From the IMG/VR virus record IMGVR_UViG_3300017963_000282, positions 41 to 64,040 of that record: 64,000 bases of DNA; one strand, written 5' to 3'. The translations under genes and the position numbers were made by a program. This document shows, piece by piece, positions 3,770 through 62,937 of this stretch. The first letter of the stretch is position 1; the number at the start of each line of letters is the position of its first letter. This stretch comes from a virus. Taxonomy: Duplodnaviria; Caudoviricetes. Under the pieces are notes generated by a model. The model was not told the DNA's origin, did not search any database, and worked only from the letters and a program-made list of their open reading frames with translations.

Positions 3770-3837
3770 AAAAAGTGGGGATTTTGATGCGCAGATCCCC
3801 TAACTGCCCGACACTGACGATCAAAATTCTCCCACTA

Positions 3838-4707: not shown

Positions 4708-4725
4708 TTCTTCATCTCCTTCTTC

Positions 4726-5268: not shown

Positions 5269-5269
5269 G

Positions 5270-7255
5270 CTATTCTTTCTCCTTTAATTCGTTCCATTTT
5301 TTACCTGGTTCCCATACATACAAATGGCCCCATGATTTGCCCACCATGGGATCAGCTAGTACTGGAACAGGCCAGTGTTTTGGATACCATTGCATAATAT
5401 CACAAAATTTCTGGACAATCAAGTCAAATTTTTCATCTCCTGGCTCTCCCCGCACCTCGAAACAAATTTCATCGTGAACGGTAAGCAAAATATGAGCATC
5501 ATCAAATAACTGATTTAATTTCAAATAGTTGTGACATTTCACCAAAGCTAACCTAATTAAATCCGCACAACTGCCCTGAATTGGGTAGTTTACAGCTTGA
5601 TTATCTATATGGCCCGTATATCCTTTTCCTTCCTTAGCCTTTTTGTAATCTTCGGATAAATCCCGGTATCTACCGAATATTGTTGTGGTAAACTGTTCTT
5701 TTTGAGCACGAAACCGTTCCTGTTCTTTATATCTTCCCCATGTCGGATATGCCTGTCGGAACATTTTATTGAAATAACCCCAACAATCTTCATCCGTTAG
5801 CTTTAATCCAGCATCTATTTCCAGTTTCTTTTTCAGTTCTGTAATTCCAAATGCGTAAGCAAGATTAAAGTTCATTGTTTTGGCAATTTTGTAATATTTC
5901 TCATAATCTGGATCACCTCGAACTTTTCCAAATACCAGCTTAGCAGTGGTCTCATGCTGATTACCCCCGCTATTTAACATGCGGATTAGATTAGGATCTC
6001 TGGAATAATTAGCAATAATGCGCACTTCAATATTACTTAAATCAATGGCTACCCATGTAAAACCTTCCTGGGGCACAAAAGCTTTGCGGATATTGTATGG
6101 ATGATCTTTGGCTAATTTGGGAATAGCCTGTGAATTAAATTTTTGTAAAAATACCCCATCCCCAGTTGCGGAAAGCCGTCCAGTAATTAACTTTGAAATA
6201 TTAAAATTAGGATGAATTCGATTATCTAAGGTTGAAATGCCGTTCAATAAAGAACTGATGTAGGTATTCATGCGCTTTTCTAAATATCGCCATTCTTTTA
6301 ATATTTCCAAAGATTTATATTTCGTACCATACTTATCCAATAATCTTTGTATGGCTTCTTGATCGGTAGAAGGATTTCCTTTTGGAGTTAACTTTGCGGG
6401 CTTGAGCTGCAAAGTATTGAAAAAATAATCACAAAGTTGTTTAGGAGACGCGATGTTAATTTCGGTATCCGTATGTTTTCGAACTTCAGTTTGAAAAGAA
6501 TCTTCCAATTCAGCTAATTTCGCTTCGCCCTGTGCGTGCATACTGGTTAAATAGGGAATATCAATACAAACTCCGGTATCTTCTATTTTTTGAATAGGTT
6601 CAATTAAACGATGGTCTAATTGGCGCACATTTTTATATTTATCACTCAAGGCTTGTTTTTGATCTCGGTAATACTGAAATAAGCGATACGTGATATCGGC
6701 ATCAGCACAAGCATAAGCTAAAGTAATATCATTTACTGGAATAGTGGCAAAACTCAGACTTTTAGCTGCTTTCGATCTCGGTGAAATACCTACCGTTTCA
6801 AAAATTGTCAACATTTTCAAATCCAAAACTTGCTGAGATTGTTGTTTTAAAGTGGGTCGCAAATGTGTATTGGCAATATCAGAATTATAAAACATAATTT
6901 TAACATCAAGAAATTTTTTTGATTTAAAGCCAGCTTTTTCTAAAAAACCCATATCAAATTTGGCATTCCAATACACACAGGTTTTATCCGAGAAATGTTT
7001 ATTGCAAAATGCTATAAGATCCTCAATAGTTACATTTTTGGAATCCTTATGCTCCACGGAAATATAATATGCCTCTTCTTCTTCAAAACAAAAAGAAAGA
7101 CCCACAATCTTATGGATATGTTTGCTTAATCCAGTAGTTTCAATATCCACGGCCACATACTCACAATTCGGCGGGATTCCTAAAAAATCATCCAAATTAG
7201 TCAAATGTTCATAATGACAATTTTCCTGCCATTCAGGAATTTTTGGTTTGTCCAT
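5270..7255 (-). CDS. polA: Family A DNA polymerase with 3'-5' exonuclease domain
   Basis: ExoI DIETTG, ExoII NAKFD, ExoIII YACADA; TGRLS; motif A DLSNIEVR; motif B KTMNFNLAY; motif C TVHDEI. No 5'-3' exonuclease domain. Confidence 0.95.
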   Translation of the reverse strand: MDKPKIPEWQENCHYEHLTNLDDFLGIPPNCEYVAVDIETTGLSKHIHKIVGLSFCFEEEEAYYISVEHKDSKNVTIEDLIAFCNKHFSDKTCVYWNAKFDMGFLEKAGFKSKKFLDVKIMFYNSDIANTHLRPTLKQQSQQVLDLKMLTIFETVGISPRSKAAKSLSFATIPVNDITLAYACADADITYRLFQYYRDQKQALSDKYKNVRQLDHRLIEPIQKIEDTGVCIDIPYLTSMHAQGEAKLAELEDSFQTEVRKHTDTEINIASPKQLCDYFFNTLQLKPAKLTPKGNPSTDQEAIQRLLDKYGTKYKSLEILKEWRYLEKRMNTYISSLLNGISTLDNRIHPNFNISKLITGRLSATGDGVFLQKFNSQAIPKLAKDHPYNIRKAFVPQEGFTWVAIDLSNIEVRIIANYSRDPNLIRMLNSGGNQHETTAKLVFGKVRGDPDYEKYYKIAKTMNFNLAYAFGITELKKKLEIDAGLKLTDEDCWGYFNKMFRQAYPTWGRYKEQERFRAQKEQFTTTIFGRYRDLSEDYKKAKEGKGYTGHIDNQAVNYPIQGSCADLIRLALVKCHNYLKLNQLFDDAHILLTVHDEICFEVRGEPGDEKFDLIVQKFCDIMQWYPKHWPVPVLADPMVGKSWGHLYVWEPGKKWNELKEKE

Positions 7256-7691
7256 ATTTTTTTAACCCCTCAAAAATCCACTTAAGTTTATCCTCATCTT
7301 TTTTTCTATACGCCTGATCCAATTCATAATAGATTTTATTGAATCTAGGATGCCGATATTTAATTGTTAATTTTATAATTTCATTCCGATAAGCTTGCAA
7401 CAATTCATTTTCCACAGGTTGAAAATCAGTACCTAAACGAATTCCAAAATTTTTGAAAATAAAATCACGGGCCTCCTCATTGGAAGTAAATCCTTCCATC
7501 GCTCTCACTAATCCTACTGGTCCATAATAAGCCCCGCAAGCATAACATTTATATATTTTAGTTTCGGGATAGACTCGCGCTGAAGGATGCACATCATGGC
7601 CATGTACAATACACGCAAAATTTTGTCGCTGTTCAGGATAAATTGTATTTGGTCGATAATAATTTATTATTTCGTAAATGAGATTTTCCAT
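7233..7691 (-). CDS. Stand-alone CHC2 zinc-finger (primase zinc-binding domain) protein
   Basis: CIVH...PSARVY....YKCYACG...GPVGLVRAMEG; no TOPRIM domain in 152 aa. Confidence 0.8.
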   Translation of the reverse strand: MENLIYEIINYYRPNTIYPEQRQNFACIVHGHDVHPSARVYPETKIYKCYACGAYYGPVGLVRAMEGFTSNEEARDFIFKNFGIRLGTDFQPVENELLQAYRNEIIKLTIKYRHPRFNKIYYELDQAYRKKDEDKLKWIFEGLKKYGQTKNS

Positions 7692-7694
7692 ATT

Positions 7695-9137
7695 TCATTT
7701 ATCTTCTTTGTCACCAAAATCTAATTCTTCCCCGCCCTCCAAACTCATTTGTGAAGGCCTATTACTCATCCCGTCTTCAAAGCTGCGGAGACTTCCGGCT
7801 TGAAAATGAGATTCCACATCAAAATATGGCAAATCGGGGTAGCCTTCTCCATGTCTATTTTTTAATACGGCCATGCGGGATTCATTGGTAAAGGATCGTG
7901 GTAATTTTTCTTTTTTATCACCTTCTAATGCACTAAGCTTAAACATAGAGATTACAACATCTGGAGACCGATAAGCATCGGGGGTATTCGCGGCATCCTC
8001 TAATAAATAAATTCCACTTCGTTTAACGGCTTTCTCTTTACCTACGCGGTTAATTTGATGGGCAGTACAAACAAAAATGCCTTCTCCTTGATTGAAATTT
8101 AAAGCAAAATCTCGTTGGGCATAAATGAATGTTTCACCCTTTGTTAAATAGTTTTCAGTACCCTTAGTCATCATAGCTAACCGATCAAAGTAATCCACAA
8201 ACACAGCAGATAACGGAGTAAATTTATGAATTTCCTCACAACGGGCATGAATGTCTTGAATAGTTTGTCCGGCAGATACTTTTTCAAAAATTAGTTTACC
8301 ATATTTTGGATTATTCGTAAAATCATCCACAGCCTCTTTAAAAACTTTTTCGACTTCGGGAGTTAATTGTCCAGCTCGTAAATGTTTAGTATTAAAAGAA
8401 TCTAATCCAAATTTTTTAAAGGCATGAATGGCCATTACATTTAATCGCATTAAATCTAAACCTAATTCCGCACTAAAAAGAGCTACATTTTTACCCTGTT
8501 CTATGACGGCGTTATAGCAATGATTACGTAACATCGTGGATTTACCATGTCCGGATGCTGCATAATATACCCACAATTCCCCAGCCCGCCCTCCATTTAA
8601 TTCTCGGTCCAATTCTTTAATGCCTGATAATACACCTACTTGCTGGTTTTTTTGATCCTCAATAAATTGAAACATTTTATCTTTCGCCTCTTCCCCAGTA
8701 AAATCTTCGGTAATAATACTAATACTAGTTTTATTTTTAATTTCTAAAAGTCGCGCAAGCATTTTTCCACGAATTTCTAAATCTTTACCTGTTCTTAATT
8801 CTTTGGCTAAATCAGCTACAGCCCGCGTCTCCCTATCCTTATACAATTGAATTAAAGCTTCCATTCGCTGATGTACTAAAGCTAAATCAATACTATCGGA
8901 AAGCTTCTCAACTGTTTCTTCAAATTTAATTCGTTGTTCCGCATTCAAGGATTCCAAGGAAGCTTTTAATGCTTCTTTAGACATGGGAATTCCTTTTTCT
9001 AACCAGAATTGAATTAGCCGGCGATACAATTCTGCTTTTACATCATCTTCAAAAAATTCTGGATAGATATTTCTTTTGATTGTTTCAACCAATGGAGTCA
9101 AACAACCAGATAAAACAACATCTTCAACTTGAGACAT
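7695..9137 (-). CDS. dnaB: DnaB-like replicative helicase
   Basis: SGIKELDRELNGGRAGEL, Walker A AASGHGKST, FSAEL, VFVDY, HQINR, KNRHG. Confidence 0.9.
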   Translation of the reverse strand: MSQVEDVVLSGCLTPLVETIKRNIYPEFFEDDVKAELYRRLIQFWLEKGIPMSKEALKASLESLNAEQRIKFEETVEKLSDSIDLALVHQRMEALIQLYKDRETRAVADLAKELRTGKDLEIRGKMLARLLEIKNKTSISIITEDFTGEEAKDKMFQFIEDQKNQQVGVLSGIKELDRELNGGRAGELWVYYAASGHGKSTMLRNHCYNAVIEQGKNVALFSAELGLDLMRLNVMAIHAFKKFGLDSFNTKHLRAGQLTPEVEKVFKEAVDDFTNNPKYGKLIFEKVSAGQTIQDIHARCEEIHKFTPLSAVFVDYFDRLAMMTKGTENYLTKGETFIYAQRDFALNFNQGEGIFVCTAHQINRVGKEKAVKRSGIYLLEDAANTPDAYRSPDVVISMFKLSALEGDKKEKLPRSFTNESRMAVLKNRHGEGYPDLPYFDVESHFQAGSLRSFEDGMSNRPSQMSLEGGEELDFGDKEDK

Positions 9138-9771
9138 TTTTAATATTGCCTGTATTCATCACATACAAAGCTTTAGGTTTTCGTTCTAAAAGTTCGGTTT
9201 CCAAAAACTTTTTTAATTGTTCATCTTTATAAAGCTCATCCACTTTATTTAAACTTGGGATAATTCCAAATGTTAATTTATTGTGCCGCTCTCTTTGCCA
9301 AAAAAGCTCCATTACATATGATCCAATAAAATTTCGATTTACAACTGTGCCAAGAAAAATTACTAGAAATTGGGGATCTAAAAATCGAGAATCCCAGGCT
9401 TTGCGTTCTTCCGTGCCGGCCCGATTAAAAACCGTATCAATCAAATCTTTATCGGAATATATAGCTGTTCTCAATCCAACGCTTGTGGCCACCAAAGCGG
9501 CGGAATTCGCCCATTTACGCTGTCTTTCCACATTCCAATCGCACATGACAATAGTAAGCTGGCCTTTGAACAATTCTCGAACTTTTTCGGCATATACGCG
9601 ATCAATAAATTTTTCATCTATTTGAGCTTCCCGAAATCGGAATTGGAAAAGTTCTCGTTTGTAGCAATGGGGACATCGTTTTGCTAACTTAGTTTTGCCA
9701 GTATAGTATATTTTTCCATTACAGACGGTGCAATCATTTATCTTTTTTTGTATCTTATCTAAAACACTCAT
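9124..9771 (-). CDS. DnaC/IstB-like helicase loader with degenerate ATPase motifs
   Basis: N-terminal CTVCNG...CPHC, FREAQI..KF, later DLIDTVF, FLVIFLG, ELFWQR..HNKLT; adjacent to DnaB; no GxxGxGK. Confidence 0.55.
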   Translation of the reverse strand: MSVLDKIQKKINDCTVCNGKIYYTGKTKLAKRCPHCYKRELFQFRFREAQIDEKFIDRVYAEKVRELFKGQLTIVMCDWNVERQRKWANSAALVATSVGLRTAIYSDKDLIDTVFNRAGTEERKAWDSRFLDPQFLVIFLGTVVNRNFIGSYVMELFWQRERHNKLTFGIIPSLNKVDELYKDEQLKKFLETELLERKPKALYVMNTGNIKNVSS

Positions 9772-11285
9772 GAATTTTTCCTTTTTATTTTTTCCAAAAT
9801 TTCCGGAATGGTAATCGGGGCATCCCCACTTCCAAAAACTTTTGATGAATGTTTGGCTTTTTTCCTAAGAGATTCAAGCACATACTCATCAATTGTGTCT
9901 TTAGCAATGATATTTATTTCCAAAAGACTCCGATATTTCGTACCAATTCGATGTATGCGACCCCGAATTTGTTCAATCTCTCCACCAGACCATGGCCGAT
10001 CTAGCATAATCAATGTTCCAGCGGATTGTAAATTTAAACCAGCACCGCCTGCCGTAGTAATGCCCATCACTGCGGTTTGATCGGTATTTTCTAATTCCTC
10101 AAATTGTTTCAAGGCTTTAGCTCTCTGCGGAGCCGATTCTTTTCCGGTTATCCTCCAAAATGGAATATTAGCAGATTTAAAGATTTTTTGCAAGACACTT
10201 ATTGTCTTTTCAAATTTAGAAAAAATTAAAATATTCTCTCCTACTAAATTTTCTTGTACAAGCCGCAGGGCTTCTTCCAATTTTGGGTGACTTTCTTTAC
10301 CATCATAATCATCCAAAGTTTCAATAGCATTTACACATACTTGAGCCCTCTGGATGGCTCCAATTGGATCTATATTTTCTTCAATATCTTTTTTCCAATG
10401 CCCTCCGCCTACAATAAATTCATAATCTCGCATATGCCAATCCGGCAGCTCTATCCAATAATCTTGAGTAATCAAATCCGGTAATTCTTTAATTACTTCT
10501 TTCTTTGTCCTCCCCATGACAAAATGTTGAATTCTTTGACGCAATTTGTCATGATTTTTATAACCAACAATTTGGCCGTGTATGCTCCACACATAGGATA
10601 ATACACAAAATTGCTTTTTAAAATTTTCTTTATTGATAAATACATTCGGATCTAATAATTTAAAAATCCCATAAATATCAACAAGATGATTATAAATTGG
10701 TGTAGCGGTCAATCCTTTCACACCCAGAGACCGTTCCGCTAACCAAAGAGCTGATTTAGATGTTTTAGCAGAGACATTTTTACATTTTTGTATTTCATCC
10801 AAAACTAATAAATATTGCTGTCCCCGGATGGAGTTGGGGATTTCGCCAATACCATTCAAATTAAAATAAGATTTTGGATTTGTCAACTTCATATCATGTA
10901 ACAGTTGGGAATAATTGACAATATAACCATCCAGTTCATCCGTATAAAATTGGCTATAGATTTGCCGGCGGGCAGATTTGTGCCCGATGACTGCTTTAAC
11001 TTTAGCAGTGGGTAGAAATTTTTGAAATTCATTTTCCCATTGAATTTGGGTAGAGGCAAGAGTTACCACAACGATCTTAAGTTTCGGATATTTTTGAGTT
11101 TTTAAAAGATCATATGCGGCAATGCATTGTACGGTTTTACCTAAACCTGTTTTGTCTAAAAGTAAACCGCGTTTGACAGAGGCGAGAAATGCTACGCCCT
11201 GATGCTGGAAAGGATACAAAGTTCCGCGAAATCCATCCAATTTTGAATCAATCCGGACAGATTTATTAAGCCATTGATATTCCAC
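9768..11285 (-). CDS. SNF2-family helicase
   Basis: LYPFQHQGV, LLLDKTGLGKT, LVLDEIQ, LTATPIYN, GAGLNLQ.A, QIRGRIHRIG. Confidence 0.93.
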   Translation of the reverse strand: MEYQWLNKSVRIDSKLDGFRGTLYPFQHQGVAFLASVKRGLLLDKTGLGKTVQCIAAYDLLKTQKYPKLKIVVVTLASTQIQWENEFQKFLPTAKVKAVIGHKSARRQIYSQFYTDELDGYIVNYSQLLHDMKLTNPKSYFNLNGIGEIPNSIRGQQYLLVLDEIQKCKNVSAKTSKSALWLAERSLGVKGLTATPIYNHLVDIYGIFKLLDPNVFINKENFKKQFCVLSYVWSIHGQIVGYKNHDKLRQRIQHFVMGRTKKEVIKELPDLITQDYWIELPDWHMRDYEFIVGGGHWKKDIEENIDPIGAIQRAQVCVNAIETLDDYDGKESHPKLEEALRLVQENLVGENILIFSKFEKTISVLQKIFKSANIPFWRITGKESAPQRAKALKQFEELENTDQTAVMGITTAGGAGLNLQSAGTLIMLDRPWSGGEIEQIRGRIHRIGTKYRSLLEINIIAKDTIDEYVLESLRKKAKHSSKVFGSGDAPITIPEILEKIKRKNS

Positions 11286-11314
11286 TGAAATTCCTATTCT
11301 TCTTCTTAAAAAGC

Positions 11315-11402
11315 GGCGGGCTTGGGGGTATCAGCCCCAACTTGCTCAGCCTATCCATGGTTCTGAGACCGCTTGGCAGCACGTTACTGCGAAAGACCCG
11401 CC
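11315..11402 (-). ncRNA. Candidate structured RNA, cloverleaf-like, in the intergenic leader of the replication genes
   Basis: GC-rich island in AT-rich DNA. Minus strand: closing stem GGCGGGU/GCCCGCC enclosing hairpins GCAG/CUGC, CUCAG/CUGAG and UUGGGG/CCCCAA, followed by a U-tract. Confidence 0.5.
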
Positions 11403-11404
11403 AT

Positions 11405-42074: not shown

Positions 42075-44521
42075 TTATAGTAAGCCGGCTGCGGCCAATT
42101 CTTCATTGATAGCTCGTTGGTCTACCTCAAAAGTAAGATCAATAAATTCAGCAGGATATAGAGGAGCCATACCAACTCTAACCACTAACCGTCCAGTTCG
42201 TCGTAAAGTTGGAGGATTGTTAGATTCATCTACAATCACAAAAAAGGCATCAGCTGGTTGTTCTCCAAAAAGACCTCCATCTTGCCATAACAATTTCAGA
42301 AAAGCATTGATGCTGGCCCGGATGGCTCTCCAGGTAGCCGGTCCGTTTGGTTCATGTTTTGCAAATTTAATACCTTCTTGAATAGATTCTTCAGCAAAAA
42401 GGAATAATCGGCGGATTGGGATAGAACTCCAAGATGAGGATAATTGCCCTAATGTGCGACCCCCATCAATATAAATGCCAATTCCAGCTTCATCTACAAT
42501 CGGATTGATTCGTGCCGGATATAGGGCATCCCGTTCTCCCCGAGACGTATTGTAAACAACGCCCAAGGCTCCAAATAATTTACCATCATTGATTCCCGCA
42601 GGAGATTTCCAAACACCCCGTTTAAAATCAGTCCTAGCATACGCGCCAGCGGCAAAACCAGAAGGAGGAACAGCTGTTCTAGCACCCGTTTGGGGATGGG
42701 AAACAATGATCCAGTAATCATAAATTGCCCCATAAGTAGAATTTAGTGCGGCTTCATCGCGGATAAAATCCAAGAGATCCTGCGGTCTTTCACTCTTGTT
42801 GTCCCCGGTGGAATCCAGAATCGCAATCAAATCAGCCCTAGATTCACAGTAATTCAGCATAGCTTGCAAAACAGCTTCAGTATTGATTCCAGGAACACAT
42901 AAAATATTCACATCATCAATCGCGTCAAAGGCGTATAATCCGGTTTGACCTGCTGAAGTACCAATATAATCCTGATCGCCAACTCCGGTTACATCATAAG
43001 CTCCACCAGAAAGTGCCGTCAAAATGATTGCGCGAGGTCTATCATTGGGGGCGGTAGAACCCGAATTTTGATCGGCCACAGTAATATATTCAGACTTTGG
43101 ATCATCTGTCGTGCCAACAATTGTTTCCACATAGCGGGCATCAGATGTATCCATAGTTAGATTATCATAAATTTCAACCACATTGCCCGCATAAGAAACC
43201 AACATGCTGAAATACTTAGATTGTGGTAAAACGTGTTCAGCAGTAGGATAATCAGATGCATAATTGGTGGTAATGCGAGCTCGGAGCCAATAGAATGTTT
43301 CCGTATTGACCGAATTCTTTGCCCAATCAGTGGGCATATCAAAACCAATGATTCCGCTAGCTTGCATATGTTGGGCATCAGTAATCGTTTCAGTAGATTG
43401 CTAACCGGTGTCCAAATACTACCGTTCCAGTATTCCCATTGCAATTGACCTGTTGCATCACCTGCTTGAGCTAAATATATTTCGACAAAATTGAATTTTT
43501 CTGTGGCGCCAATATACATAGCATCATCTAGTGCAGTAGCAGCTGCGGTTTCCAAAGAAGCATCAGAAACCACTGTAAAAGGCCCAAATGGTCTGTCTTC
43601 TCCAATAGTTGTACGACTAATTTGAGCAGGGGTGGTATAAAGCGTGGTAATCAAAAAACGGACATAATAACCAGAAACGCTATTTACTTCCAATTGTGTC
43701 CAATCGCCAGGAGCCGACCATTCAATCAGCAAATTGTCTGCGGCCACTGCCGTAAACTCAGTCGTATTATCCGTAGCTGGAGTAAACTCTACCCAAGACG
43801 TACCATTATAATATTCCCAGCGTCCTGCACCAGCAATACCCGCCACATCCAAATCAAAATACAACTTTTCAAAAGTTTTTTCCTTAGAACCAAAATACAT
43901 GGCATCACCAACATTTGCAGGAATAGCAAACGCGGCACCACCACCAGGAGTTCTCAGGACTGCGGTACGATCCGTAAATACTGAAGACTCTTCAGTAAAT
44001 GCGGCTAGCAAACCAGGAGTTCTTGCGGGGGCAGAATTAGCTGTAAAAACCCCACCATCATTTCCAAGAACCCGATTAAAAGATCCAATTTGGTTACTTG
44101 CCAATCCAATGGAAACTTTTAAGTCATCTCCCCATTCACCTTCATTTAAAGCTTCTGCTAAAATAGTATTCACACCAGCTCCAGCAGAACGATCCTTTAA
44201 ATAAAGAGAAGCTTTCTGATTAGCCGTGGTATTCAATTGGCCAGTAGTGGTATCATCATAATCTGCGGTTCTGACTACCCAACAAGCCGTTCCGCCGTTA
44301 AGGAAAAATCCCCATACGGCAAAAGTCAAATAACTATAATCTGTGAATCCGCCAAAAACTCTGGTATATTGTTCAAATGAAGTGATTAACTGTGGTTCAC
44401 CAATCGGTCCCCGTTCAGCCAATCCAAGAAAAGCACTGGTCGAAGTCCCAACGCCAATAATAGCGCGGCCATCATTTTCAACTTCTCGAACAAAAACTCC
44501 AGGACTTAAAAAACTGGCCAT
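42075..44521 (-). CDS. Contractile tail sheath protein, interrupted by one frameshift near 43394 (track ORFs 43157..44521 and 42075..43367)
   Basis: N-part MASFLSPGVFVREV...FLGLAERGP...FFLNGG..CWVVR; C-part VPPSG..AG..ARTD..RGVWKSPAG, INPI, RRLF, EPN, P..PAEFI. Adding one base joins them into ~815 aa. Confidence 0.9.
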
Positions 44522-47487: not shown

Positions 47488-47540
47488 GTAGTAAAAAGGA
47501 ACCCATAGCAACCTATAATATCCTCAGCAACTAATTCAAA

Positions 47541-48596
47541 TTATACTGGAGTTTCAGTAAGATCGTAGAGCGCAAAGTTGGCATTGGGCTTACGACAAAT
47601 CAGCTGAAGATATGATTCCATGTAATGCTTGTTTGCAGGACCGTCTTTGGCGATTGGAGTCATTTGGGCTTCTTTGAGCACCTTCATCTTCCAATAGCGC
47701 ATATCCAATCCGAAAACATCCTGACCCTTATTACCAGCTGCGGTACCAACCAGGGTATCACCAGCAGTGCGGGGCACATGGATAGAATCCGCAATAGGAA
47801 TAGCACGATACTGTGAAACCACAAAACCGGCATTCACATTGATCGTATCATTAAACCGTTGCCGCGTAGCAAAAATGTTATTCAGATTATCTCTTTGAAC
47901 ATTACCAGTAATAATCAGATTAACTCGGCCACCATCATCTCGGACAGCTCGAAGACCGGCATCTAATTTTGCCTGGCTAATATTCTCAGGAGTACCCGGA
48001 GTCGCGCCATAAAACGCATTGGAAAACAACGTAGCGGTCTCAGCATCAGTTGTTCGATCCAAACCATACAGCGTATCCGTAGAAACCGGGGTGGGCGTAG
48101 CATCCTGAAGAACGTGGCGAAGACCAACTAAGTTATTCGCACTTTCACCGGCAATTATACCAGATCGAATTGCGAAAAGCTGAATCTCTTCCAAATCCCG
48201 GAAATCCATAACGGCGTCACCCAACTCTTCCATAAGGACATCAATGCCGCCTTGACCAGCCGCCGATGCAATCATATAATCCGAAACGGCAACACCAATT
48301 CGGATAATACCAGCATATTCGGCCACTCTTAAGCGCCCTTGATTTCCAAAGGAAGCATCCGGCAAAGCATCTGCCGTGGTAGGCTCAACGGTCATGGTTC
48401 GGCTTGCATTACGAGCAGTTCTCACGCGAATCCCGGTTGGATTACCAATCATGGGCTCACGATCAAACAGTTGCCGAAACACATTATCATCATTCAATTG
48501 ATTCCACACAGCCAAATCAAACAGATCGTTTAATTCAGCGCGATCTGCGCCAACAACAGGCAGAGTCGAGGTAATGTCAGCAGTTAAAAGAGCCAT
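47541..48596 (-). CDS. Major capsid protein (HK97 fold expected)
   Basis: 351 aa after the scaffold; EE.QLF, GLR.VL, LYGLDR, GGRVNLIITG, YRAIPI; strong RBS and downstream terminator. Confidence 0.85.
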   Translation of the reverse strand: MALLTADITSTLPVVGADRAELNDLFDLAVWNQLNDDNVFRQLFDREPMIGNPTGIRVRTARNASRTMTVEPTTADALPDASFGNQGRLRVAEYAGIIRIGVAVSDYMIASAAGQGGIDVLMEELGDAVMDFRDLEEIQLFAIRSGIIAGESANNLVGLRHVLQDATPTPVSTDTLYGLDRTTDAETATLFSNAFYGATPGTPENISQAKLDAGLRAVRDDGGRVNLIITGNVQRDNLNNIFATRQRFNDTINVNAGFVVSQYRAIPIADSIHVPRTAGDTLVGTAAGNKGQDVFGLDMRYWKMKVLKEAQMTPIAKDGPANKHYMESYLQLICRKPNANFALYDLTETPV

Positions 48597-48628
48597 TCTT
48601 TTAAACCCCCCTTAAAAGGACTGTAAAA

Positions 48629-49465
48629 TTATCTATTTAGGACTTTTGTTAATGCATTCTGCAATTTTGGACTATTCTTAATCAATTCAGGCAAGGTTTC
48701 CAAATTGATGGATTGAGCTTGCTCTGGAGTTAATTTCTCTAAAATCGAGCCCCCAGTTGATCCGCCCGCTGGGGCTTGTTGAGTTGCTTTTTGTGCATCA
48801 GAATCCGCAGCTGGGGGATTAGGCGCTCCCATTTGCTGAGTTTGAATCTGACCCGGCACCTGCGATTTCTTAATCACATCTTTGAAAACTTCTTTTGCTT
48901 CCTCTACTGCCAGTTGAAAAGCATCGGCATCTTTCTTATCTGCACCAATAAACTTATGATATTCTTCAGGAATGCCCGATTCTTTTAAGATTTGTACCTT
49001 TGCAACTTCAAATTCTTTTGCCTGGCGGGCTACTTCCGCATCAGCTAATTTCTGGAGCAATTCCTTATTTTGATCTGCAAGTTTACTTAATTGATCCTGA
49101 AATTTTTCCGTATCAGACAATTTAGCTAGCCTCTCTTTTTCTTGCGCTTCCTTAATTAAATTCAATTCTTGTGCGACTTTTGTGAATTCCGCTTCTTTGG
49201 TCTCAAATTGTTCTTTTAACCCAGCGATTTTACTTAACAATGAATCCCTACTTTGTTTCACTTTGGGATCATACATTGGATCATATCCCGCAGGTAATTG
49301 AAAATCCCCAGTAGGTGCGGGAGTTTGCTGTGTTTGCTGCCTCTCATTTTCTATAGCGGCAGAAGCTTGTTGGGTTATATTCTGATGAAGTTGCTTTGTT
49401 TTCTGGGAATGCGGCCCAGAGCCGGTAATAGTGGATAAATCTTGGTTATTATCTTGTTCTGGCAT
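48629..49465 (-). CDS. Capsid scaffolding protein
   Basis: Coiled coil with KLSDTEK, GIPEEY..FI; directly upstream of the capsid gene; AAAGGAG RBS. Confidence 0.8.
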   Translation of the reverse strand: MPEQDNNQDLSTITGSGPHSQKTKQLHQNITQQASAAIENERQQTQQTPAPTGDFQLPAGYDPMYDPKVKQSRDSLLSKIAGLKEQFETKEAEFTKVAQELNLIKEAQEKERLAKLSDTEKFQDQLSKLADQNKELLQKLADAEVARQAKEFEVAKVQILKESGIPEEYHKFIGADKKDADAFQLAVEEAKEVFKDVIKKSQVPGQIQTQQMGAPNPPAADSDAQKATQQAPAGGSTGGSILEKLTPEQAQSINLETLPELIKNSPKLQNALTKVLNR

Positions 49466-49522
49466 AAAATTACTCCTTTGAAATAATTACACAAATGTAC
49501 AAAAAATGCACATACAGGAGGT

Positions 49523-49558
49523 ACTATACCATATTTTTTAAAGAAAAAAGGTATGGTC
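49523..49558 (-). promoter_or_regulatory. Phage-specific promoter motif, copy 1 (heads the scaffold-capsid-tail operon)
   Basis: GACCATACC-N16-TATGG-TATAGT. Confidence 0.7.
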
Positions 49559-49608
49559 ATTCGATTTTTTTGAAAAAAAGTGAATTTTTTTGAGGGGTTG
49601 GGAACGTG

Positions 49609-49932
49609 CTAATCTAACACATAAAAGCTGATTTTATGGGGGGGAATGCGTAAGATCATGGAATCTTTGAAGATTCTCCATTTAATCGCAAAAGGCAGTT
49701 GTTTCATATGAAAATGAATATCCCAATAATATTTGGTAAAATTTTCTGCCTCTTTTAAACCTAAATATCTCCACCTTTCTTTGAACTTCCAGCTATTTCG
49801 ATAATTATAGATACCCTGTTGAACTAAAGCCTCGAAATATTTGCCAAAACACCTTTTGTACCAAAAAGATAGACAAACATAAATCAATTTATAGCCTAAC
49901 TTCTTGATTTCTTTATGAAATTTTTTCCGCAT
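49609..49932 (-). CDS. Hypothetical protein
   Basis: AAGGA RBS; aromatic/basic 107 aa. Confidence 0.5.
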   Translation of the reverse strand: MRKKFHKEIKKLGYKLIYVCLSFWYKRCFGKYFEALVQQGIYNYRNSWKFKERWRYLGLKEAENFTKYYWDIHFHMKQLPFAIKWRIFKDSMILRIPPHKISFYVLD

Positions 49933-49953
49933 ATCCTTATTTTATCATAAATA

Positions 49954-50415
49954 TTAAGGTGTGTCTACTGGATCTTCCAAATTATCAACATATTGATCTA
50001 TATATGGTTTTAATACAAAATCCATTTGTAAAATAACCATATGTTCCCAACACGTTCGACGTAAATGATTAAATCGAAATATAGCATGTACAAATTCATG
50101 ATTTAGCGTATGGATATCACCTTGTCGGACATAAATAGAATGGGTCATCGGATGATAACAACCCAAAGCCCATGGACCACAATAATCAAAAAGACCATCC
50201 TCATCCACATAATAAACTTTAGGAAAAGGCGGTTCTTTTAAAACACATCCCTTTGAAGCGTAAGCTTGCAATAAAACGTTGAGATATCGCACATTTGCCT
50301 TAAGCAACACCTCATGTTCCCGCACTGGAGCTGGTTTTTTTGAACTTAGTGAAAATCCAAAAATATTAAAAATCAACAATAATCCTACTAATAATGAAAA
50401 AGTGTTTCTAAACAA
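49954..50415 (-). CDS. Putative exported HExxH zinc metallopeptidase
   Basis: N-terminal hydrophobic signal; GCYH....IYV.....TLNHEFVH...E. Confidence 0.6.
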   Translation of the reverse strand: MFRNTFSLLVGLLLIFNIFGFSLSSKKPAPVREHEVLLKANVRYLNVLLQAYASKGCVLKEPPFPKVYYVDEDGLFDYCGPWALGCYHPMTHSIYVRQGDIHTLNHEFVHAIFRFNHLRRTCWEHMVILQMDFVLKPYIDQYVDNLEDPVDTP

Positions 50416-50428
50416 TGGTTTAGGATTC

Positions 50429-50767
50429 CTATAAGTCTGAAAATTTCCAAATTAAAGCGATTAAAGACCATTGAAAAGCTGCCAACCATACCAAGAGAAA
50501 AGTTAGTATAATCCAAGACAGCCATTGCGGCACAAACATTAAATCAAATAGGCCGGTAGTAGTACCACCAATTGCCACGAACGCTGAAATATAATGGGAT
50601 AGGCAATACGGACAACCTACCAATTTTCCCAAAAACTTAGATTTTTTTTGAATCCAACGTCTAAGTCCTTGAAATAACAGGCTTTTAGCAATAGTCCACG
50701 ATAAACAAGCCACAATTGCGGATAAAATAAAAAGAGATGATCCACAAAATTCCTCTAGCATATACAC
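50429..50767 (-). CDS. Small membrane protein with CPYC motif (DUF1360-like)
   Basis: LFQGLRRW...LGKLVGCPYCLSHY plus hydrophobic helices. Confidence 0.65.
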   Translation of the reverse strand: MYMLEEFCGSSLFILSAIVACLSWTIAKSLLFQGLRRWIQKKSKFLGKLVGCPYCLSHYISAFVAIGGTTTGLFDLMFVPQWLSWIILTFLLVWLAAFQWSLIALIWKFSDL

Positions 50768-50829
50768 CCACTACCACAATGCGTTACAGGACGTAGCATC
50801 CATTTTCTAATCCAAATACTTGAAATCAT

Positions 50830-51498
50830 TTATTTTTTACCCCCTTTGCGTTTTTTATTAGCCTGTTTTTTTACTTTTTTAACTAATGGTTTTTGTTTTG
50901 GCCAATCATTAAAACATAAAATTCCATCAACAAATCCATAGTTAACCACTTCTTCTACACCTAAATATACATCCCCACCCTTGTTTTGAATAAAAAGATT
51001 TTTCAAACCAGCTTTTTTAAGCCTCGTATGGGTTTCATAAACATCATACATCATTTCCAGCCGATTCTCGCTTTCTTTACCATATGAAATAGAATCCCTA
51101 ATATGTTCTGAACCGGATGAATGAACCGTTCCACCTTCATGGATCATAAAACACGTATTGGGAGCCAAATATCGTTCATCACAGGCCAACATAACAATAG
51201 TGGCCATCGAGGCCACGATTCCCCATCCAAAAGCTCTGGTATAACATTTTATGGATCTAAGAATGTCATACATCGCCCAACCGGCTTCATCCGACCCCCC
51301 ACAGGAATTTACATGAATGGTTATTGGTCTTTTGTTCAATGATTCCAATAACATAAGATTTTTGTGCAACCGAATTGCCGCAGCCTGGGAAATATTCCCA
51401 ATATATACTTCTCTCCTAGTGAGACTTACACCGGATTCCACATAACGCTCCAAATCATCACCAAATGTGTTTATTTGGTCCCGTGTTTTGGCATCCAT
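50830..51498 (-). CDS. clpP: ClpP-family serine protease
   Basis: VNSCGGS...G.AMYD, ASMA (Ser), FMIHE (His), GDVYL (Asp), YGFVD. Confidence 0.9.
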   Translation of the reverse strand: MDAKTRDQINTFGDDLERYVESGVSLTRREVYIGNISQAAAIRLHKNLMLLESLNKRPITIHVNSCGGSDEAGWAMYDILRSIKCYTRAFGWGIVASMATIVMLACDERYLAPNTCFMIHEGGTVHSSGSEHIRDSISYGKESENRLEMMYDVYETHTRLKKAGLKNLFIQNKGGDVYLGVEEVVNYGFVDGILCFNDWPKQKPLVKKVKKQANKKRKGGKK

Positions 51499-51515
51499 TT
51501 GCTGGCCCTACCTGA

Positions 51516-51815
51516 TTAGAATTGAATTACAATACCGAAAGTTGGAGAGTGGGAATTGGCATCAATTTTAAAATAATATCCCCAGTTGCAGTTTTGCCTG
51601 TATGGCGCAAGCTGTTTTTTATAAATTGGCGAGCTATTGATATATTCTTGTGAAAACTCAGATTGCATTAGTTGCCCGGCCACAAAATGATCCGATATAT
51701 GAGTTTGCAGGATTTTTGGGATATTTCGAATCTGCCAAGAATACGAAGAAACACAAACCATAAAAACTGAGAAAATCCAAGGAGTTAGCTTTCTCAATAA
51801 TTGTTGAAATGTCAT
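51516..51815 (-). CDS. Hypothetical membrane/exported protein
   Basis: Start placed at ATG 51815 after GGAGGG; N-terminal hydrophobic stretch. Confidence 0.55.
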   Translation of the reverse strand: MTFQQLLRKLTPWIFSVFMVCVSSYSWQIRNIPKILQTHISDHFVAGQLMQSEFSQEYINSSPIYKKQLAPYRQNCNWGYYFKIDANSHSPTFGIVIQF

Positions 51816-51835
51816 ACCGCCCTCCAAGTTTTATT

Positions 51836-51871
51836 AGTCTACCACAAAATTATAACATAGGCGGTATGGTC
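51836..51871 (-). promoter_or_regulatory. Phage-specific promoter motif, copy 2
   Basis: GACCATACC-N16-TGTGG-TAGACT. Confidence 0.7.
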
Positions 51872-51878
51872 TCGTCAA

Positions 51879-52232
51879 TTATATTTTAAGTATTTGTAAT
51901 TCCTTTGCTTTATTTTTGTTTTCCAGGTAGGACAAAATATGTGGTCTAGCCTCATGTAGCACTGCCTTCTTAAATTTGGCAAATGAAAATTCATTTTGTC
52001 CAATAATTCCAAGGATTTCGGTGGGAAAGTATTCTTCAATAATTGCGTTATAGAGATCATCCACTACCTCAGAAATTTGTTCCGGAATCTGAATTAACAT
52101 ACCGGAATCATTCAATTTTTCTATCCGACTAAAGATATAGTCTTGGGTCACATATCTCAATGCAATTTTTTCTTCAATTGTTTTTTTACGTTCCATAATG
52201 GCAAAAATTAACCTCCATAGCTGTGAGCACAT
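51879..52232 (-). CDS. Hypothetical protein (start 52232 or 52196)
   Basis: The longer track start (52367) would run across promoter motif copy 3, so it is trimmed. Confidence 0.55.
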   Translation of the reverse strand: MCSQLWRLIFAIMERKKTIEEKIALRYVTQDYIFSRIEKLNDSGMLIQIPEQISEVVDDLYNAIIEEYFPTEILGIIGQNEFSFAKFKKAVLHEARPHILSYLENKNKAKELQILKI

Positions 52233-52262
52233 CTTAGCCACTAGGGCTCTTTTTTGCCAATT

Positions 52263-52298
52263 AGTATAGCACACTTTTTCTAGTTGGGCGGTATGGTC
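52263..52298 (-). promoter_or_regulatory. Phage-specific promoter motif, copy 3
   Basis: GACCATACC-N16-TGTGC-TATACT. Confidence 0.7.
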
Positions 52299-52559
52299 TA
52301 ATATAACTACATGAAATCTATACAAAAAAACATCTTGTTCACCAATAGGGCACAATTTCACGACCATGAAATAATGGCCATTTCGTGAACAATTTTAATT
52401 ATCTGCGATGTTTAAAAAATTGAATTTGACGCTCTGCGGCATTAAATCTTTTTTTAGAAGGTTTTTTTGTACCAAACCACCTTAAAACCCGTCCGGTAGT
52501 TTTAGAGATCAGGGCGTATTCTAATTTACCCGTTTTGGGATTTTTTCTGTGAGCTAGCA

Positions 52560-52787
52560 TTATTTTCGTTTTGGAGGAAGTAAACTCTTCTTCCGTACCT
52601 TCCGGCGTAAGGAACCGGTGCTTTTAGCCAAATTCTCAAAAAATTGTACCCGACGTTCCGCGCTGAGAACTCTTTCATGAGATGGCTTTTTGGACCCAAA
52701 CCACTTAAGAACTTTACTGGGCTTGCTATCTGCTACCAGCGCCCATTGCATCGTTCCTGTTTTTGGATTCTTTCTCCTGACCAACAT
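52560..52787 (-). CDS. Small basic hypothetical protein
   Basis: AGGAG RBS; WALV....KVL.WFG...ERRVQFF. Confidence 0.65.
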   Translation of the reverse strand: MLVRRKNPKTGTMQWALVADSKPSKVLKWFGSKKPSHERVLSAERRVQFFENLAKSTGSLRRKVRKKSLLPPKRK

Positions 52788-52925
52788 GCTACTATTCTCC
52801 TACTACAAAAAATTGACCATTTACTACATATTCGCAAAAAAAGCGTAACCACAACCAATTTAAGTTTATAATTAAAACATAATATACTTATTTAATTTGA
52901 TTATATTATCTTTCTTATTATATAT

Positions 52926-53167
52926 AGATCATTATTGATCTAACAACAGAGAACCCGGACTAGGCAGCTAGGAAAAGAAAGAAAAACGTAATAATTACGC
53001 ATATTTACAAAGTCCAGACGCACCAATACGAAAAGTGTATTTTTGAATAAAAATCACCCTTCGTATTTATGACTCCAATTTTTTTAAATCCCTGAAGCCG
53101 GGATTAACTAACCTGCCGAAATTATTCGGCTTTCCAAAAAATCTTGTTGTTAGATCAATGATGATCT
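52926..53167. repeat. 23-bp inverted repeat pair (52926-52948 and 53145-53167)
   Basis: AGATCATTATTGATCTAACAACA versus reverse complement AGATCATCATTGATCTAACAACA (22/23); each contains the palindrome AGATCA-N4-TGATCT. Confidence 0.9.
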
Positions 53168-53266
53168 TTTCTATTGAGCACTACGCCTTCTTGCCTTTTT
53201 TTACCTCGCAGTATCAAGGTCCCAGCTCATGCAAAGATAACGAGGTGTGCAAAACGCACAGAGATT

Positions 53267-53302
53267 ACTATACCATACTTTTTCAAGAAAACAGGGCAGG
53301 TC
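53267..53302 (-). promoter_or_regulatory. Phage-specific promoter motif, copy 4 (fires into non-coding DNA)
   Basis: GACCTGCCC-N16-TATGG-TATAGT. Confidence 0.62.
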
Positions 53303-53885
53303 ATTGTTTTTTTCTTAATGCCCGCCTTAAATTTTCTAATCTTCTGTGTAACTTTCGGATTTCCCACCGTAATTGATAATTTTCAGCCATTAGACCTGCG
53401 GACAATTCATCTAAACATCGGCCATTGGGTAAAATATATTTCCCAGCTGGTTGATTTTTTGCCGCTTGGGTATTCCAGGTCATGTAATGGGTGTATTCGT
53501 GTGTTAAGGTATCCCACCGGCCTTTCAGATAATATACGGTATTGGTTTTATAATCAAAAAATCCGTTAATTTTCCGTATTTTAGCCTTTGGATATAATTT
53601 ATGATGCATTGCGGCTAATTCTTCTTTAGTACAAGAAACCGTGGCGGGGCGCGGCAATGTTAAATCATACTGACATAATTCTCCGGTATGTCCGCTCAAA
53701 TGTTGCTTTAGAGTAAATTTCACATATTCATATGAATCCTTTTCCCAAGCTTCCCTATTTTTTTCTACTACAAAAATAAACGGGGCTTTAAACCATTTAA
53801 CGGGAGTAAACCATTTTGCATGGGCATATCCTGCCATCCAGCCTAATAACACCAAAGCTAATACACAAATTATAAGCGTTTTCAT
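53301..53885 (-). CDS. Putative exported HExxH zinc metallopeptidase
   Basis: Signal peptide ending AHA; GFFD...NTVYY....DTLTHEYTH...DE; C-terminal coiled coil; AAGGAG RBS. Confidence 0.62.
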   Translation of the reverse strand: MKTLIICVLALVLLGWMAGYAHAKWFTPVKWFKAPFIFVVEKNREAWEKDSYEYVKFTLKQHLSGHTGELCQYDLTLPRPATVSCTKEELAAMHHKLYPKAKIRKINGFFDYKTNTVYYLKGRWDTLTHEYTHYMTWNTQAAKNQPAGKYILPNGRCLDELSAGLMAENYQLRWEIRKLHRRLENLRRALRKKQ

Positions 53886-53905
53886 TTAAAGACTCCTTTT
53901 TTTGC

Positions 53906-53954
53906 TTGCTTTCCTAAATTTTACTTGCTAGAATAGGGCAAAGTCAAGTAAAAT
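53906..53954. promoter_or_regulatory. Overlapping divergent sigma70-type promoters at the strand switch
   Basis: Plus: TTGCTT-17-TAGAAT (53906-53934, TG-extended). Minus: TTGACT-18-TAAAAT (53947-53918). 10-bp inverted repeat ATTTTACTTG/CAAGTAAAAT. Confidence 0.6.
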
Positions 53955-53983
53955 AGTAGATAATTTTTATGGAGGATTGTTTA

Positions 53984-54358
53984 ATGAAAAAATTGTTGGT
54001 AGCTATGTTTTTGATTTCATTAGCTTTTTTTGTATCATGCGATGATGAATTCTACCCATGGGGCTTTCCATTTGGCACTACGATGGGTATTGATTGTCCC
54101 ATTCCAGTGCCCACTCCGGCTCCGGACGGTCAAGATGTAATGCCAGCTGACGATCAAGATCAAGATGGGGATGGGGAAGATGACGGAGTTCCGGCAGGGG
54201 AAGATGGTTGTTTGGAAACTCAATTTGCTATTTGTCATATTCCGCGTGGGAATCCGGATAATTATTTCACTATTTGTGTAGGCAGTGAAGCGGCAGTCGA
54301 AGCGCATTTGGCTCATGGTGATATTGAAGGATATTGTGAAGATATCGAGTTTGAATAA
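53984..54358 (+). CDS. Lipoprotein with acidic linker and Cys/His-rich C-terminal domain
   Basis: GGAGG then MKKLLVAMFLISLAFFVS-C lipobox-like; ICHIPRGNP...TICV...AHLAHGD..G.C. Confidence 0.7.
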   Translation: MKKLLVAMFLISLAFFVSCDDEFYPWGFPFGTTMGIDCPIPVPTPAPDGQDVMPADDQDQDGDGEDDGVPAGEDGCLETQFAICHIPRGNPDNYFTICVGSEAAVEAHLAHGDIEGYCEDIEFE

Positions 54359-54381: not shown

Positions 54382-54705
54382 ATGGATCTTTATCCTTTTA
54401 TTAGTGTTCCGGGATGGGCGTTAATCACTCTTTTGGTTTTGGCCCTTCTCTTAGATTTTTTAGCTTATCGGCGAATAAGCAAACGATTAAAGCATCTGGA
54501 AAACGAAGCATTTGTCGCAGCTGATGTAGAAAATGAAGAAGTGGATGAATCCGGAGAATCAGGAGCCACGGACTTGATTTTGGAAGAACTTGCTTCTGAT
54601 ATTGATGATTTGGAAGCTGTAACCTCCGATTTGCTTAAAAGAATGGTTCGGATTGAAAAAACCTATGTGCGCCGCAAAACCGGCCCCAAGAAGAAATCAA
54701 AATGA
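54382..54705 (+). CDS. Membrane-anchored coiled-coil protein
   Basis: AAGGAG RBS; one N-terminal TM helix. Confidence 0.65.
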   Translation: MDLYPFISVPGWALITLLVLALLLDFLAYRRISKRLKHLENEAFVAADVENEEVDESGESGATDLILEELASDIDDLEAVTSDLLKRMVRIEKTYVRRKTGPKKKSK

Positions 54706-56563: not shown

Positions 56564-56565
56564 TC

Positions 56566-56662
56566 AGGGACTCCCATAGTATGAATCCCATGTTCCATCG
56601 TTTTTTAAGGGGTTTTGCTGTTTTTACCCTTTTTTGGATTTAGTTATGGGAGTCCTCTTTTT
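56566..56662 (+). terminator. Long structured element / terminator with a large internal region
   Basis: GGGACUCCCAUAG pairs with UUAUGGGAGUCCU; inner GAAUCC/GGAUUU and AAGGGG/CCCUUU; U-tract follows. Confidence 0.55.
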
Positions 56663-56679
56663 ATATTGGAGGAATATTT

Positions 56680-61802: not shown

Positions 61803-62378
61803 ATGCATAATATTTGGTTTACAGCCGATCAACATTTTTGGCATAAGTCGATTATTCGACATTGTAATCGCCCATTTCCGTTCCTAACTCAGATGCACAG
61901 AGCCTTAATTGATAATTTTAATGCGGTAGTGACTAATAAAGATCATATTTATCATCTAGGTGATTTTGCCTTTATAAATAATGTTCCGATGGTGAAAAAA
62001 ATTTTTAAAGAGCTTAACGGTAAAAAACATTATATTATTCCTGGAAATCATGATCGTTGGCTTCGAAAATTAAAACGGGAGGGGGAGTCTATTTATCGAT
62101 TAGAGATTTTAGAACCCATACATGAATTAAAATGGGAAGGACAACGAATCACTCTTTGCCACTATGCTATGCTTACCTGGCCTGCGGCGCATCGTGGCAG
62201 TTGGTGTTTATATGGTCACTCACACGGAAATCTTAAACCAGAGAAAGGACGACTTATGGATGTGGGAGTGGACTCGCATAATTTTTATCCTATTAGTTTT
62301 AACCAAGTAAAAGAATATATGGCCACCCGCATACCCTGGGAGGTGGACCACCATAGAGAGGAAAAAGGCAATGGCTAG
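61803..62378 (+). CDS. Calcineurin-like metallophosphoesterase
   Basis: WFTADQHFWH, HLGDF, GNHD, LCHY, LYGHSH, DVGVD. Confidence 0.92.
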   Translation: MHNIWFTADQHFWHKSIIRHCNRPFPFLTQMHRALIDNFNAVVTNKDHIYHLGDFAFINNVPMVKKIFKELNGKKHYIIPGNHDRWLRKLKREGESIYRLEILEPIHELKWEGQRITLCHYAMLTWPAAHRGSWCLYGHSHGNLKPEKGRLMDVGVDSHNFYPISFNQVKEYMATRIPWEVDHHREEKGNG

Positions 62379-62937
62379 AATCATTAGAAAAGGGGATGGG
62401 GCTAATGTCCCGCTTGATTTTGGAGTGCCTCCTGGATATACCATTTATTTATCCGGTGGCATGGAATATTCATCTGATTATGGAATGGGTTGGAGAGATA
62501 AAATTGTACAAGAGCTTTCTGAGACCGGTTTTAAATTTTATAATCCTTGCGAAGAAGAAAAACCTATTTTAAAGCACCATGGAGTAAAAGATCCAACTGA
62601 GCTCTTTAAAATGAAAACATGGAAAGATTTACCAAAAGCAGTAAGCGTGGTCAAGGATTTTTTGATTAAAGATAGAAATGTTATTTATCAATGTAACGCT
62701 CTGATAGTATATTACGACAAATCTACGCAGCTGGGTGGTGGTACTGCAATGGAACAAGCCTGGGCGAATGAGGGAGTGAATGAACAGCGGCCCATTTTCT
62801 TTGTCATGGGTATTGGATTTGAACTCAAGAATGTTTCATTATCCATGTTGGCCATGTCTGATTACATTTTTGAGGATTTAAAAGACTGCATTATTTATTT
62901 AAAAAGAGCGAGGGAACTTTATGACCATGTTACCTAA
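62371..62937 (+). CDS. Nucleoside 2'-deoxyribosyltransferase-like / dNMP N-glycosidase family protein
   Basis: IYLSGGM...WR...FYNP...D...I..C.ALIVY.D...GGTAME (catalytic Glu)...PIF. Confidence 0.8.
   Translation: MARIIRKGDGANVPLDFGVPPGYTIYLSGGMEYSSDYGMGWRDKIVQELSETGFKFYNPCEEEKPILKHHGVKDPTELFKMKTWKDLPKAVSVVKDFLIKDRNVIYQCNALIVYYDKSTQLGGGTAMEQAWANEGVNEQRPIFFVMGIGFELKNVSLSMLAMSDYIFEDLKDCIIYLKRARELYDHVT

Follow-up and report, generated by a model that had tools for sequence, protein, structure and literature searches.

A 64,000-nucleotide (nt) stretch of an uncultured tailed-phage genome (IMG/VR record IMGVR_UViG_3300017963_000282, positions 41 to 64,040; hereafter the window) contains four minus-strand sites, between positions 49,523 and 53,302, in which a 9-bp box, GACCATACC, or a degenerate form of it stands at a fixed distance upstream of an extended -10 element. 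These sites are very probably promoters. We put at roughly 0.4 the probability that they make up one phage-specific class, in which the primary sigma factor of the host would be engaged through the extended -10 element and the box would dock a phage activator or an adaptor that takes the place of sigma region 4. The new element is the upstream box, while a phage promoter class that dispenses with the -35 element is already known. The window is almost the whole of a linear record of 64,040 bases, has a G+C content of 37.8%, and is put by CheckV at 40% completeness.

Reading back the window sequence confirmed the four minus-strand strings picked out by an earlier sequence-only reading, each of which consists of GACC, 26 nt and a -10-like hexamer. 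Copy 1 (49523-49558) is composed of the box GACCATACC, a 16-nt spacer with an A-tract, TATGG and TATAGT; copy 2 (51836-51871) of GACCATACC(GCC), the spacer, TGTGG and TAGACT; and copy 3 (52263-52298) of GACCATACC(GCC), the spacer, TGTGC and TATACT. In copy 4 (53267-53302) the box is degenerate (GACCTGCCC) and the spacer agrees with that of copy 1 at 13 of 16 positions; TATGG and TATAGT follow. The pattern GACCNNNCC-N18-TGNTANANT (TGnTAnAnT) has four matches in the window, all on the minus strand, against 0.00 expected, and not one of 100 dinucleotide shuffles contained any match. The minimal pattern of the earlier reading, GACC-N26-TANANT, is by itself a much weaker signal than the full pattern, with five matches in the window against 1.85 expected and one shuffle in 100 reaching five. 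Its fifth match (62346-62381, plus strand) is probably due to chance, because it lacks a correctly placed TG and its hexamer falls within the first codons of the next open reading frame (ORF). The window has just three exact matches to the 9-mer GACCATACC, all within copies 1-3, and the box alone is not enriched when up to one mismatch is allowed (seven matches against 7.7 expected). The window has 63 TGNTANANT sites, and a 9-mer recurring three times at a single offset upstream of such sites was seen in none of 500 shuffles of the upstream strings. A repeat finder run without prior assumptions on 49300-54000 returned, as its top two families of direct repeats, the pairs copy 1/copy 4 (53 nt, 79%) and copy 2/copy 3 (40 nt, 73%). 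The motif is genuine and falls into two subtypes.

The earlier description of these sites as non-canonical promoters applies to just one half of the motif: the box, located at about -42 to -34, is new, but the downstream half is a canonical extended -10 element at all four sites. By sequence, each site belongs to the extended -10 class, with TRTGn (TATGG, TGTGG, TGTGC and TATGG) followed by a TAnnnT-type hexamer that in every case also fits TAnAnT (TATAGT, TAGACT, TATACT and TATAGT). As in other promoters of the extended -10 sigma70/sigmaA class, T-17 R-16 T-15 G-14 stands one base before TAnAnT and there is no -35 element; the difference is the additional conserved 9-bp box at a fixed upstream distance, which lies outside the definition of the class. 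No TTGACA-like hexamer is found 17 nt upstream of the -10 element, as had been noticed before; the copies have CCTTTT, CCGCCT, CCGCCC and CCTGTT there, and no better match appears with spacers of 16-19 nt. According to the available part of one account, the extended -10 motif T-17 R-16 T-15 G-14 n is read by sigma domain 3, bypasses the contact between sigma region 4 and the -35 element, and makes that element dispensable for the primary sigma factor (PMC7403470). Thus, the absence of a -35 element does not by itself call for an activator. In the window as a whole, TRTGNTANANT has 16 matches against 7.6 expected, a number reached by two of 100 shuffles, and the minus-strand interval 49523-53277 accounts for seven of the 16.

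The box, which is asymmetric, ends exactly 21 nt upstream of the hexamer; with a transcription start 7 nt past the hexamer, it would span -42 to -34. Upstream of the box, every copy has an A/T-rich flank resembling UP elements; an A5 tract in the spacer is common to copies 1, 3 and 4, and an A directly follows the hexamer in every copy. The clearest indication that the box matters comes from comparing the copies segment by segment. Copies 1-3 are pairwise identical at all nine positions of the box but agree at only 6 of 16 (pair 1-2) or 7 of 16 (pairs 1-3 and 2-3) spacer positions, and because of this the box looks like a constrained element, separate from the -10 region and held at a fixed distance from it. 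It is probably a separate functional element. A reading of the motif as a conserved hairpin was rejected: segments of 44 nt (the 36-nt motif with 4 nt on each side) gave z-scores of -1.63, -0.23, -0.44 and +0.56. Since the sites form no conserved hairpin, a protein-binding site at the DNA level is likelier than an RNA element. When GACCATACC was used as a text term in the literature, the matches listed were unrelated, mostly eukaryotic work, and none concerned phage promoters.

Taken together, these features suggest a mechanism in which RNA polymerase carrying the host primary sigma would recognize T-17 R-16 T-15 G-14 n and TA(T/G)A(G/C)T and start transcription at the four sites, with a -35 element neither present nor needed. 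A trans-acting protein would dock on the box, beside or over the position of sigma region 4 or alpha, and a regulator docking there is, in our judgment, the most likely account of the box. The likeliest docking factor would be a phage-encoded activator of the class II type or an adaptor replacing sigma region 4, either of which could time the expression of head-morphogenesis genes. Activation is favored over repression because the box lies just upstream of the expected position of sigma region 4. A more ambitious version, which we hold only tentatively and consider rather unlikely, is a system akin to sigma appropriation, in which a phage protein unrelated to MotA/AsiA, Mor/C or Ogr would read the box near -38 and recruit or re-tool the host polymerase at extended -10 promoters for head morphogenesis, with one of the promoters also driving a structured non-coding RNA of about 470 nt.

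The positions of the sites relative to genes fit promoters. Each of the four stands in an intergenic region or at the end of a gene, in agreement with the earlier description, points toward downstream genes, and is followed by a Shine-Dalgarno (SD) sequence with an ATG or by a structured leader. The genes that they face encode two small basic proteins, a protein of 105 amino acids (aa), the prohead protease, and the scaffold and capsid proteins. Copy 1 does head the scaffold, capsid and tail genes, as had been claimed, and lies 58 nt upstream of the scaffold ATG (49465); the scaffold (48629-49465) and major capsid (47541-48596) genes together occupy 47541-49465 on the minus strand, and the predicted 5' untranslated region after copy 1 opens with a stable hairpin (z = -2.96). 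Copy 2 stands just upstream of GGAGG-N5-ATG at 51815, which begins a membrane ORF of about 99 aa that is followed by a ClpP-like prohead protease gene (50830-51498, minus strand; phrog_94, E = 3.4e-24). It is overlapped by a near-consensus promoter, TTGACG-18-TATAAT (51849-51878, minus strand; 11 of 12 matches, TG present), which holds the GACCATACC box of copy 2 in its spacer and has its own -10 element 13 nt upstream of the copy 2 hexamer. This overlap may represent a tandem promoter or a switch and, as an arrangement, would fit repression or promoter switching as well as activation. Copy 3 lies upstream of an SD sequence and ATG at 52196, the start of the helical 105-aa ORF.

Copy 4 overlaps the stop codon of ORF 53301-53885 and is followed on the minus strand by a 473-nt stretch without a convincing ORF (52788-53260), a predicted leader or non-coding RNA. 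The stretch is strongly structured (z = -4.90; none of 100 shuffles folds as well) and contains a 23-nt, 96% complementary inverted repeat (52926-52948 and 53145-53167) that encloses 196 nt. Rfam gave no match at gathering thresholds in the whole window and none at E <= 1 in 52300-53400, and blastn and nhmmer found no homologue of the leader in the related phage described below. It is a candidate for a structured leader or a non-coding RNA of the phage. The coding genes that come first after copy 4 are two tandem paralogous small basic ORFs (52399-52787, minus strand; 75 aa and 53 aa, 52% identical), and a terminator-like imperfect hairpin with 26-nt arms and a following T-run (52335-52392, minus strand) separates this unit from copy 3.

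The main rival holds that the sites are factor-independent extended -10 promoters fired by the host holoenzyme, and that the box is a relic of duplication or a minor context element without a specific binder. Any temporal switch would then be the work of a phage protein disabling sigma region 4 in the manner of P23-45 gp39 or T4 AsiA, an action that spares extended -10 promoters. We regard this as a serious possibility, although a doubtful one. Several observations favor it or otherwise weigh against a dedicated regulator at the box. The box may be dispensable, since extended -10 promoters do not require an activator, and TRTGn with TAnAnT, found at four of four sites, is sufficient in principle. 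There are only four sites, and they form two duplicate-like pairs (79% and 73%). In the closest pair, copies 1 and 4, the box is the least conserved block, with three of nine positions differing (6/9 identical) against a spacer identity of 13/16; this comparison argues that the central ATA of the box may not be indispensable, or that the similarity may partly reflect shared descent or duplication. The 49 kb of structural and replication genes that follow copy 1 contain no further copy of the motif, and profile searches and family scans yielded no candidate regulator in the 64 kb.

Comparison with other phages adds to these points. A search of viral, metagenome and genome collections with the capsid protein found only one related phage, at 56% identity and on several contigs; the reference genome collection held nothing, and the window DNA had no match among deposited phage records. 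The related phage has no GACC-box promoters and a different gene order, and its intergenic regions contain no such box. A looser pattern, without the TG and with one mismatch, gave 4, 7 and 8 matches (forward and reverse together) in its three records, against 2, 10 and 13 in a reversed control. Two scans of IMG/VR for the box with the extended -10 element returned 37 and 36 stretches with one match each, and no contig appeared twice. The sequence-only reading would have counted the same motif at the same spacing in relatives as support, but this support did not materialize: the motif is absent from the sole relative found, and the IMG/VR matches are singletons at the level of chance. At the place equivalent to copy 1, the scaffold-capsid operon of the related phage is preceded by ATGGTACACT, which resembles an extended -10 element and has no GACC box, a point in favor of the factor-independent account. 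This ATGGTACACT lies within a palindrome with 11-nt arms that is shared with a divergent promoter.

Two features of the window are hard to reconcile with the absence of a specific binder. In the non-sister pairs 1-2 and 1-3 the box is fully conserved while the spacer has diverged, and neutral decay of duplicates would not spare exactly nine bases at a fixed distance; nor did the shuffles of upstream strings (0 of 500) reproduce a 9-mer recurring three times at one offset.

As a separate observation, the region between the scaffold-capsid operon and the divergent gene of the related phage (L005 6566-6692, equal to G003 1651-1777) has the palindrome ATGAAATATTT-N9-AAATATTTCAT, flanked by the extended -10-like sequences ATGGTACACT and TGATATACT, and so presents a different regulatory layout at the equivalent place. 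DNA of the phage studied here was found in contigs of several sediment and seawater runs, and contigs of four DNA runs over 49300-53450 agreed with the window without exception wherever their match was of high identity. Among the runs listed for 47500-53950, none was an RNA run.

The proposal that a phage-encoded activator binds the box and redirects host RNA polymerase stands in part: the sites look like a distinct, phage-specific promoter class with a box at a fixed distance, placed before head and structural genes, but no activator was found. Six-frame searches of the 64 kb, from a record that is about 40% complete, gave no match at E <= 1 to the MotA C-terminal domain (PF09158), AsiA (PF09010), Mor/C (PF08765) or Ogr/Delta (PF04606). 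They were equally negative at that threshold for Sigma70_r2 and Sigma70_r4_2, which bears out the earlier remark that no sigma factor is visible. Among 65 distinct ORFs scanned with Pfam and/or PHROGs, no transcription-factor family exceeded its cut-off and no repressor-like helix-turn-helix (HTH) protein was recognized; the nearest was a sub-threshold AsnC-type match in ORF 54382-54705 (16.4 bits against a cut-off of 25). Because about 60% of the genome is missing by the CheckV estimate, the absence of a regulator from the window decides nothing.

Two proteins encoded downstream of the sites were considered as regulators and set aside. The product of the 105-aa ORF after copy 3 is modeled as a helical bundle (predicted local distance difference test, pLDDT, 69.7, from a single sequence) with no PDB match at E <= 0.001. 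The 75-aa basic protein is confidently modeled as three strands and a helix (pLDDT 86.3, 40-row alignment), also with no PDB match at E <= 0.001. It belongs to a broad, unnamed family of modules of about 53 aa (362 representative clusters at E <= 0.001), which occur alone or as a domain in larger proteins, two of the ten scanned carrying NUDIX. Since this family is broad and is found in phages of 33-62% GC without the motif, the 75-aa protein is not convincing as a box-specific activator.

Among characterized systems, T4 offers a parallel in organization. In the available part of one account, its early promoters are of the -10/-35 class and its middle promoters are activated by MotA and AsiA through a MotA box centered at -30 (PMC6024815). 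Similarly, the available part of a second account describes Thermus phage P23-45's middle and late promoters as members of the extended -10 class and gp39 as the agent by which sigma region 4 is displaced and -10/-35 promoters are turned off (PMC7403470). As in these two phages, so far as those accounts go, two promoter classes coexist in the phage described here, since ordinary -10/-35 promoters stand at 53.9 kb in the same window. In the 83-nt divergent region 53886-53968 such promoters are found in both directions and overlap (53906-53947), with TTGCTT-17-TAGAAT on the plus strand (53906-53934) and TTGACT-18-TAAAAT on the minus strand (53947-53918). The resemblance to either phage is limited. 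The box described here is centered near -38 and differs in sequence and position from the T4 element as that account places it, and the searches of the 64 kb turned up neither a MotCF nor an AsiA domain. For P23-45, the available part of the account mentions no upstream box at its promoters (PMC7403470), and host and phage are, as far as can be told, unrelated to those considered here.

The MotA box consensus is unrelated to GACCATACC. At late promoters with a poor -35 element, the small activators Mor/C of Mu and Ogr/Delta of P2 bind over the -35 region or upstream of it, and their sites are dyad-symmetric. The box described here, in contrast, is asymmetric, and neither a Mor nor an Ogr_Delta domain was found in the 64 kb. 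The broader claim of a phage-specific transcription system is too strong: a phage-specific promoter class without a -35 element is well indicated, but this is not evidence for a new transcription system.

A third reading makes the box an operator for a phage or host repressor, so that a protein bound at -42 to -34 would hold back RNA polymerase until its removal. Without such control these extended -10 promoters would be constitutive, and the box of copy 2, inside the spacer of the TTGACG-18-TATAAT promoter, occupies a classic operator position. In copy 1, moreover, a 6-bp dyad, ACCATA...TATGGT, joins the box to the -10 region. This dyad is not kept in copies 3 and 4, however, and the box itself is asymmetric; a place just upstream of -35 is where a class II activator is more typically found, and the ORF scans provided no repressor-like HTH protein. 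We therefore consider repression unlikely.

Less likely still is recognition of the sites by an alternative sigma factor, or by one encoded by the phage, with the GACC box as its -35-type element. A conserved upstream element at a fixed distance would suit such a factor, many large phages encode their own sigma, and the missing part of the genome, about 60%, could hold one. The usual spacing in the sigma70 family is 16-19 nt, and the 21 nt between the end of the box and the hexamer exceed it. No sigma region 2 or 4 emerged from the six-frame searches of the 64 kb, and TRTGn with TAnAnT is, to judge from the available part of the source, a hallmark of recognition by the primary sigma (PMC7403470). 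Least probable of all is that the sites are not promoters and serve instead as repeats for recombination, packaging or replication, or as a loading site for a Q-type antiterminator, since their orientation, full extended -10 elements, A/T-rich upstream flanks and closely following SD-ATG all fit promoters and no recombinase or terminase gene is adjacent, even though the sites are clustered within 3.8 kb and antitermination would be useful in the run of about 38 kb of tightly packed genes with internal terminator-like hairpins after copy 1.

The remainder of the window is organized around the divergent region at 53.9 kb. From there downward, the minus strand encodes a secreted HExxH protein, the two small basic paralogues, the 105-aa ORF and the membrane ORF; then the ClpP-like prohead protease, three small ORFs, the scaffold, the major capsid, and tail sheath and baseplate genes; and also a SNF2-type helicase, a DnaB-like helicase, a DNA polymerase and a UvsX/RecA-like recombinase. 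These last genes (2154-11285, minus strand) lie downstream of the tail genes on the same strand, and a long hairpin with a T-run at 11286-11404 stands between the two groups. The plus strand from 53,969 carries a lipoprotein-like ORF, followed by genes for a LysM protein, a class IV aminotransferase, a Fic protein, an RNA ligase, a phosphoesterase and a DeoC-like aldolase; a scan of genome contigs found no relative of the Fic-domain ORF. Neither terminase nor portal was recognized among the ORFs scanned, which fits an incomplete genome, and the window has no tRNAs.

Three further features deserve mention. The tail sheath (42075-44521, minus strand) is split into two ORFs in different frames (43157-44521 and 42075-43367), which overlap by about 210 nt and both match sheath families; a frameshift, an assembly error or an inserted domain may account for the split. 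ORFs 53301-53885 and 49954-50415, both on the minus strand, have N-terminal hydrophobic segments and share an HExxH stretch (30% identity over 47 aa, pairwise E = 8e-5), and neither matched a Pfam or PHROG family. Between small plus-strand ORFs, in the intergenic region 56564-56679, there is a long inverted repeat, GGGACTCCCAT ... ATGGGAGTCC, together with a terminator-like GC hairpin with a T-run.

Promoter motifs specific to a phage are a routine finding, and the present case, a well-supported prediction of a promoter class in an uncultured phage, is useful for annotation and will not surprise the specialist. Its main value lies in a precise set of sites for the mapping of transcription starts and for binding assays, to be used when a host or the full genome is at hand. 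Should the proposed mechanism be true, the box and its factor would form a compact orthogonal promoter-and-factor pair. Ultimately, if a protein reads the box, these sites would represent another independent route by which a phage re-aims the RNA polymerase of its host without the -35 contact.

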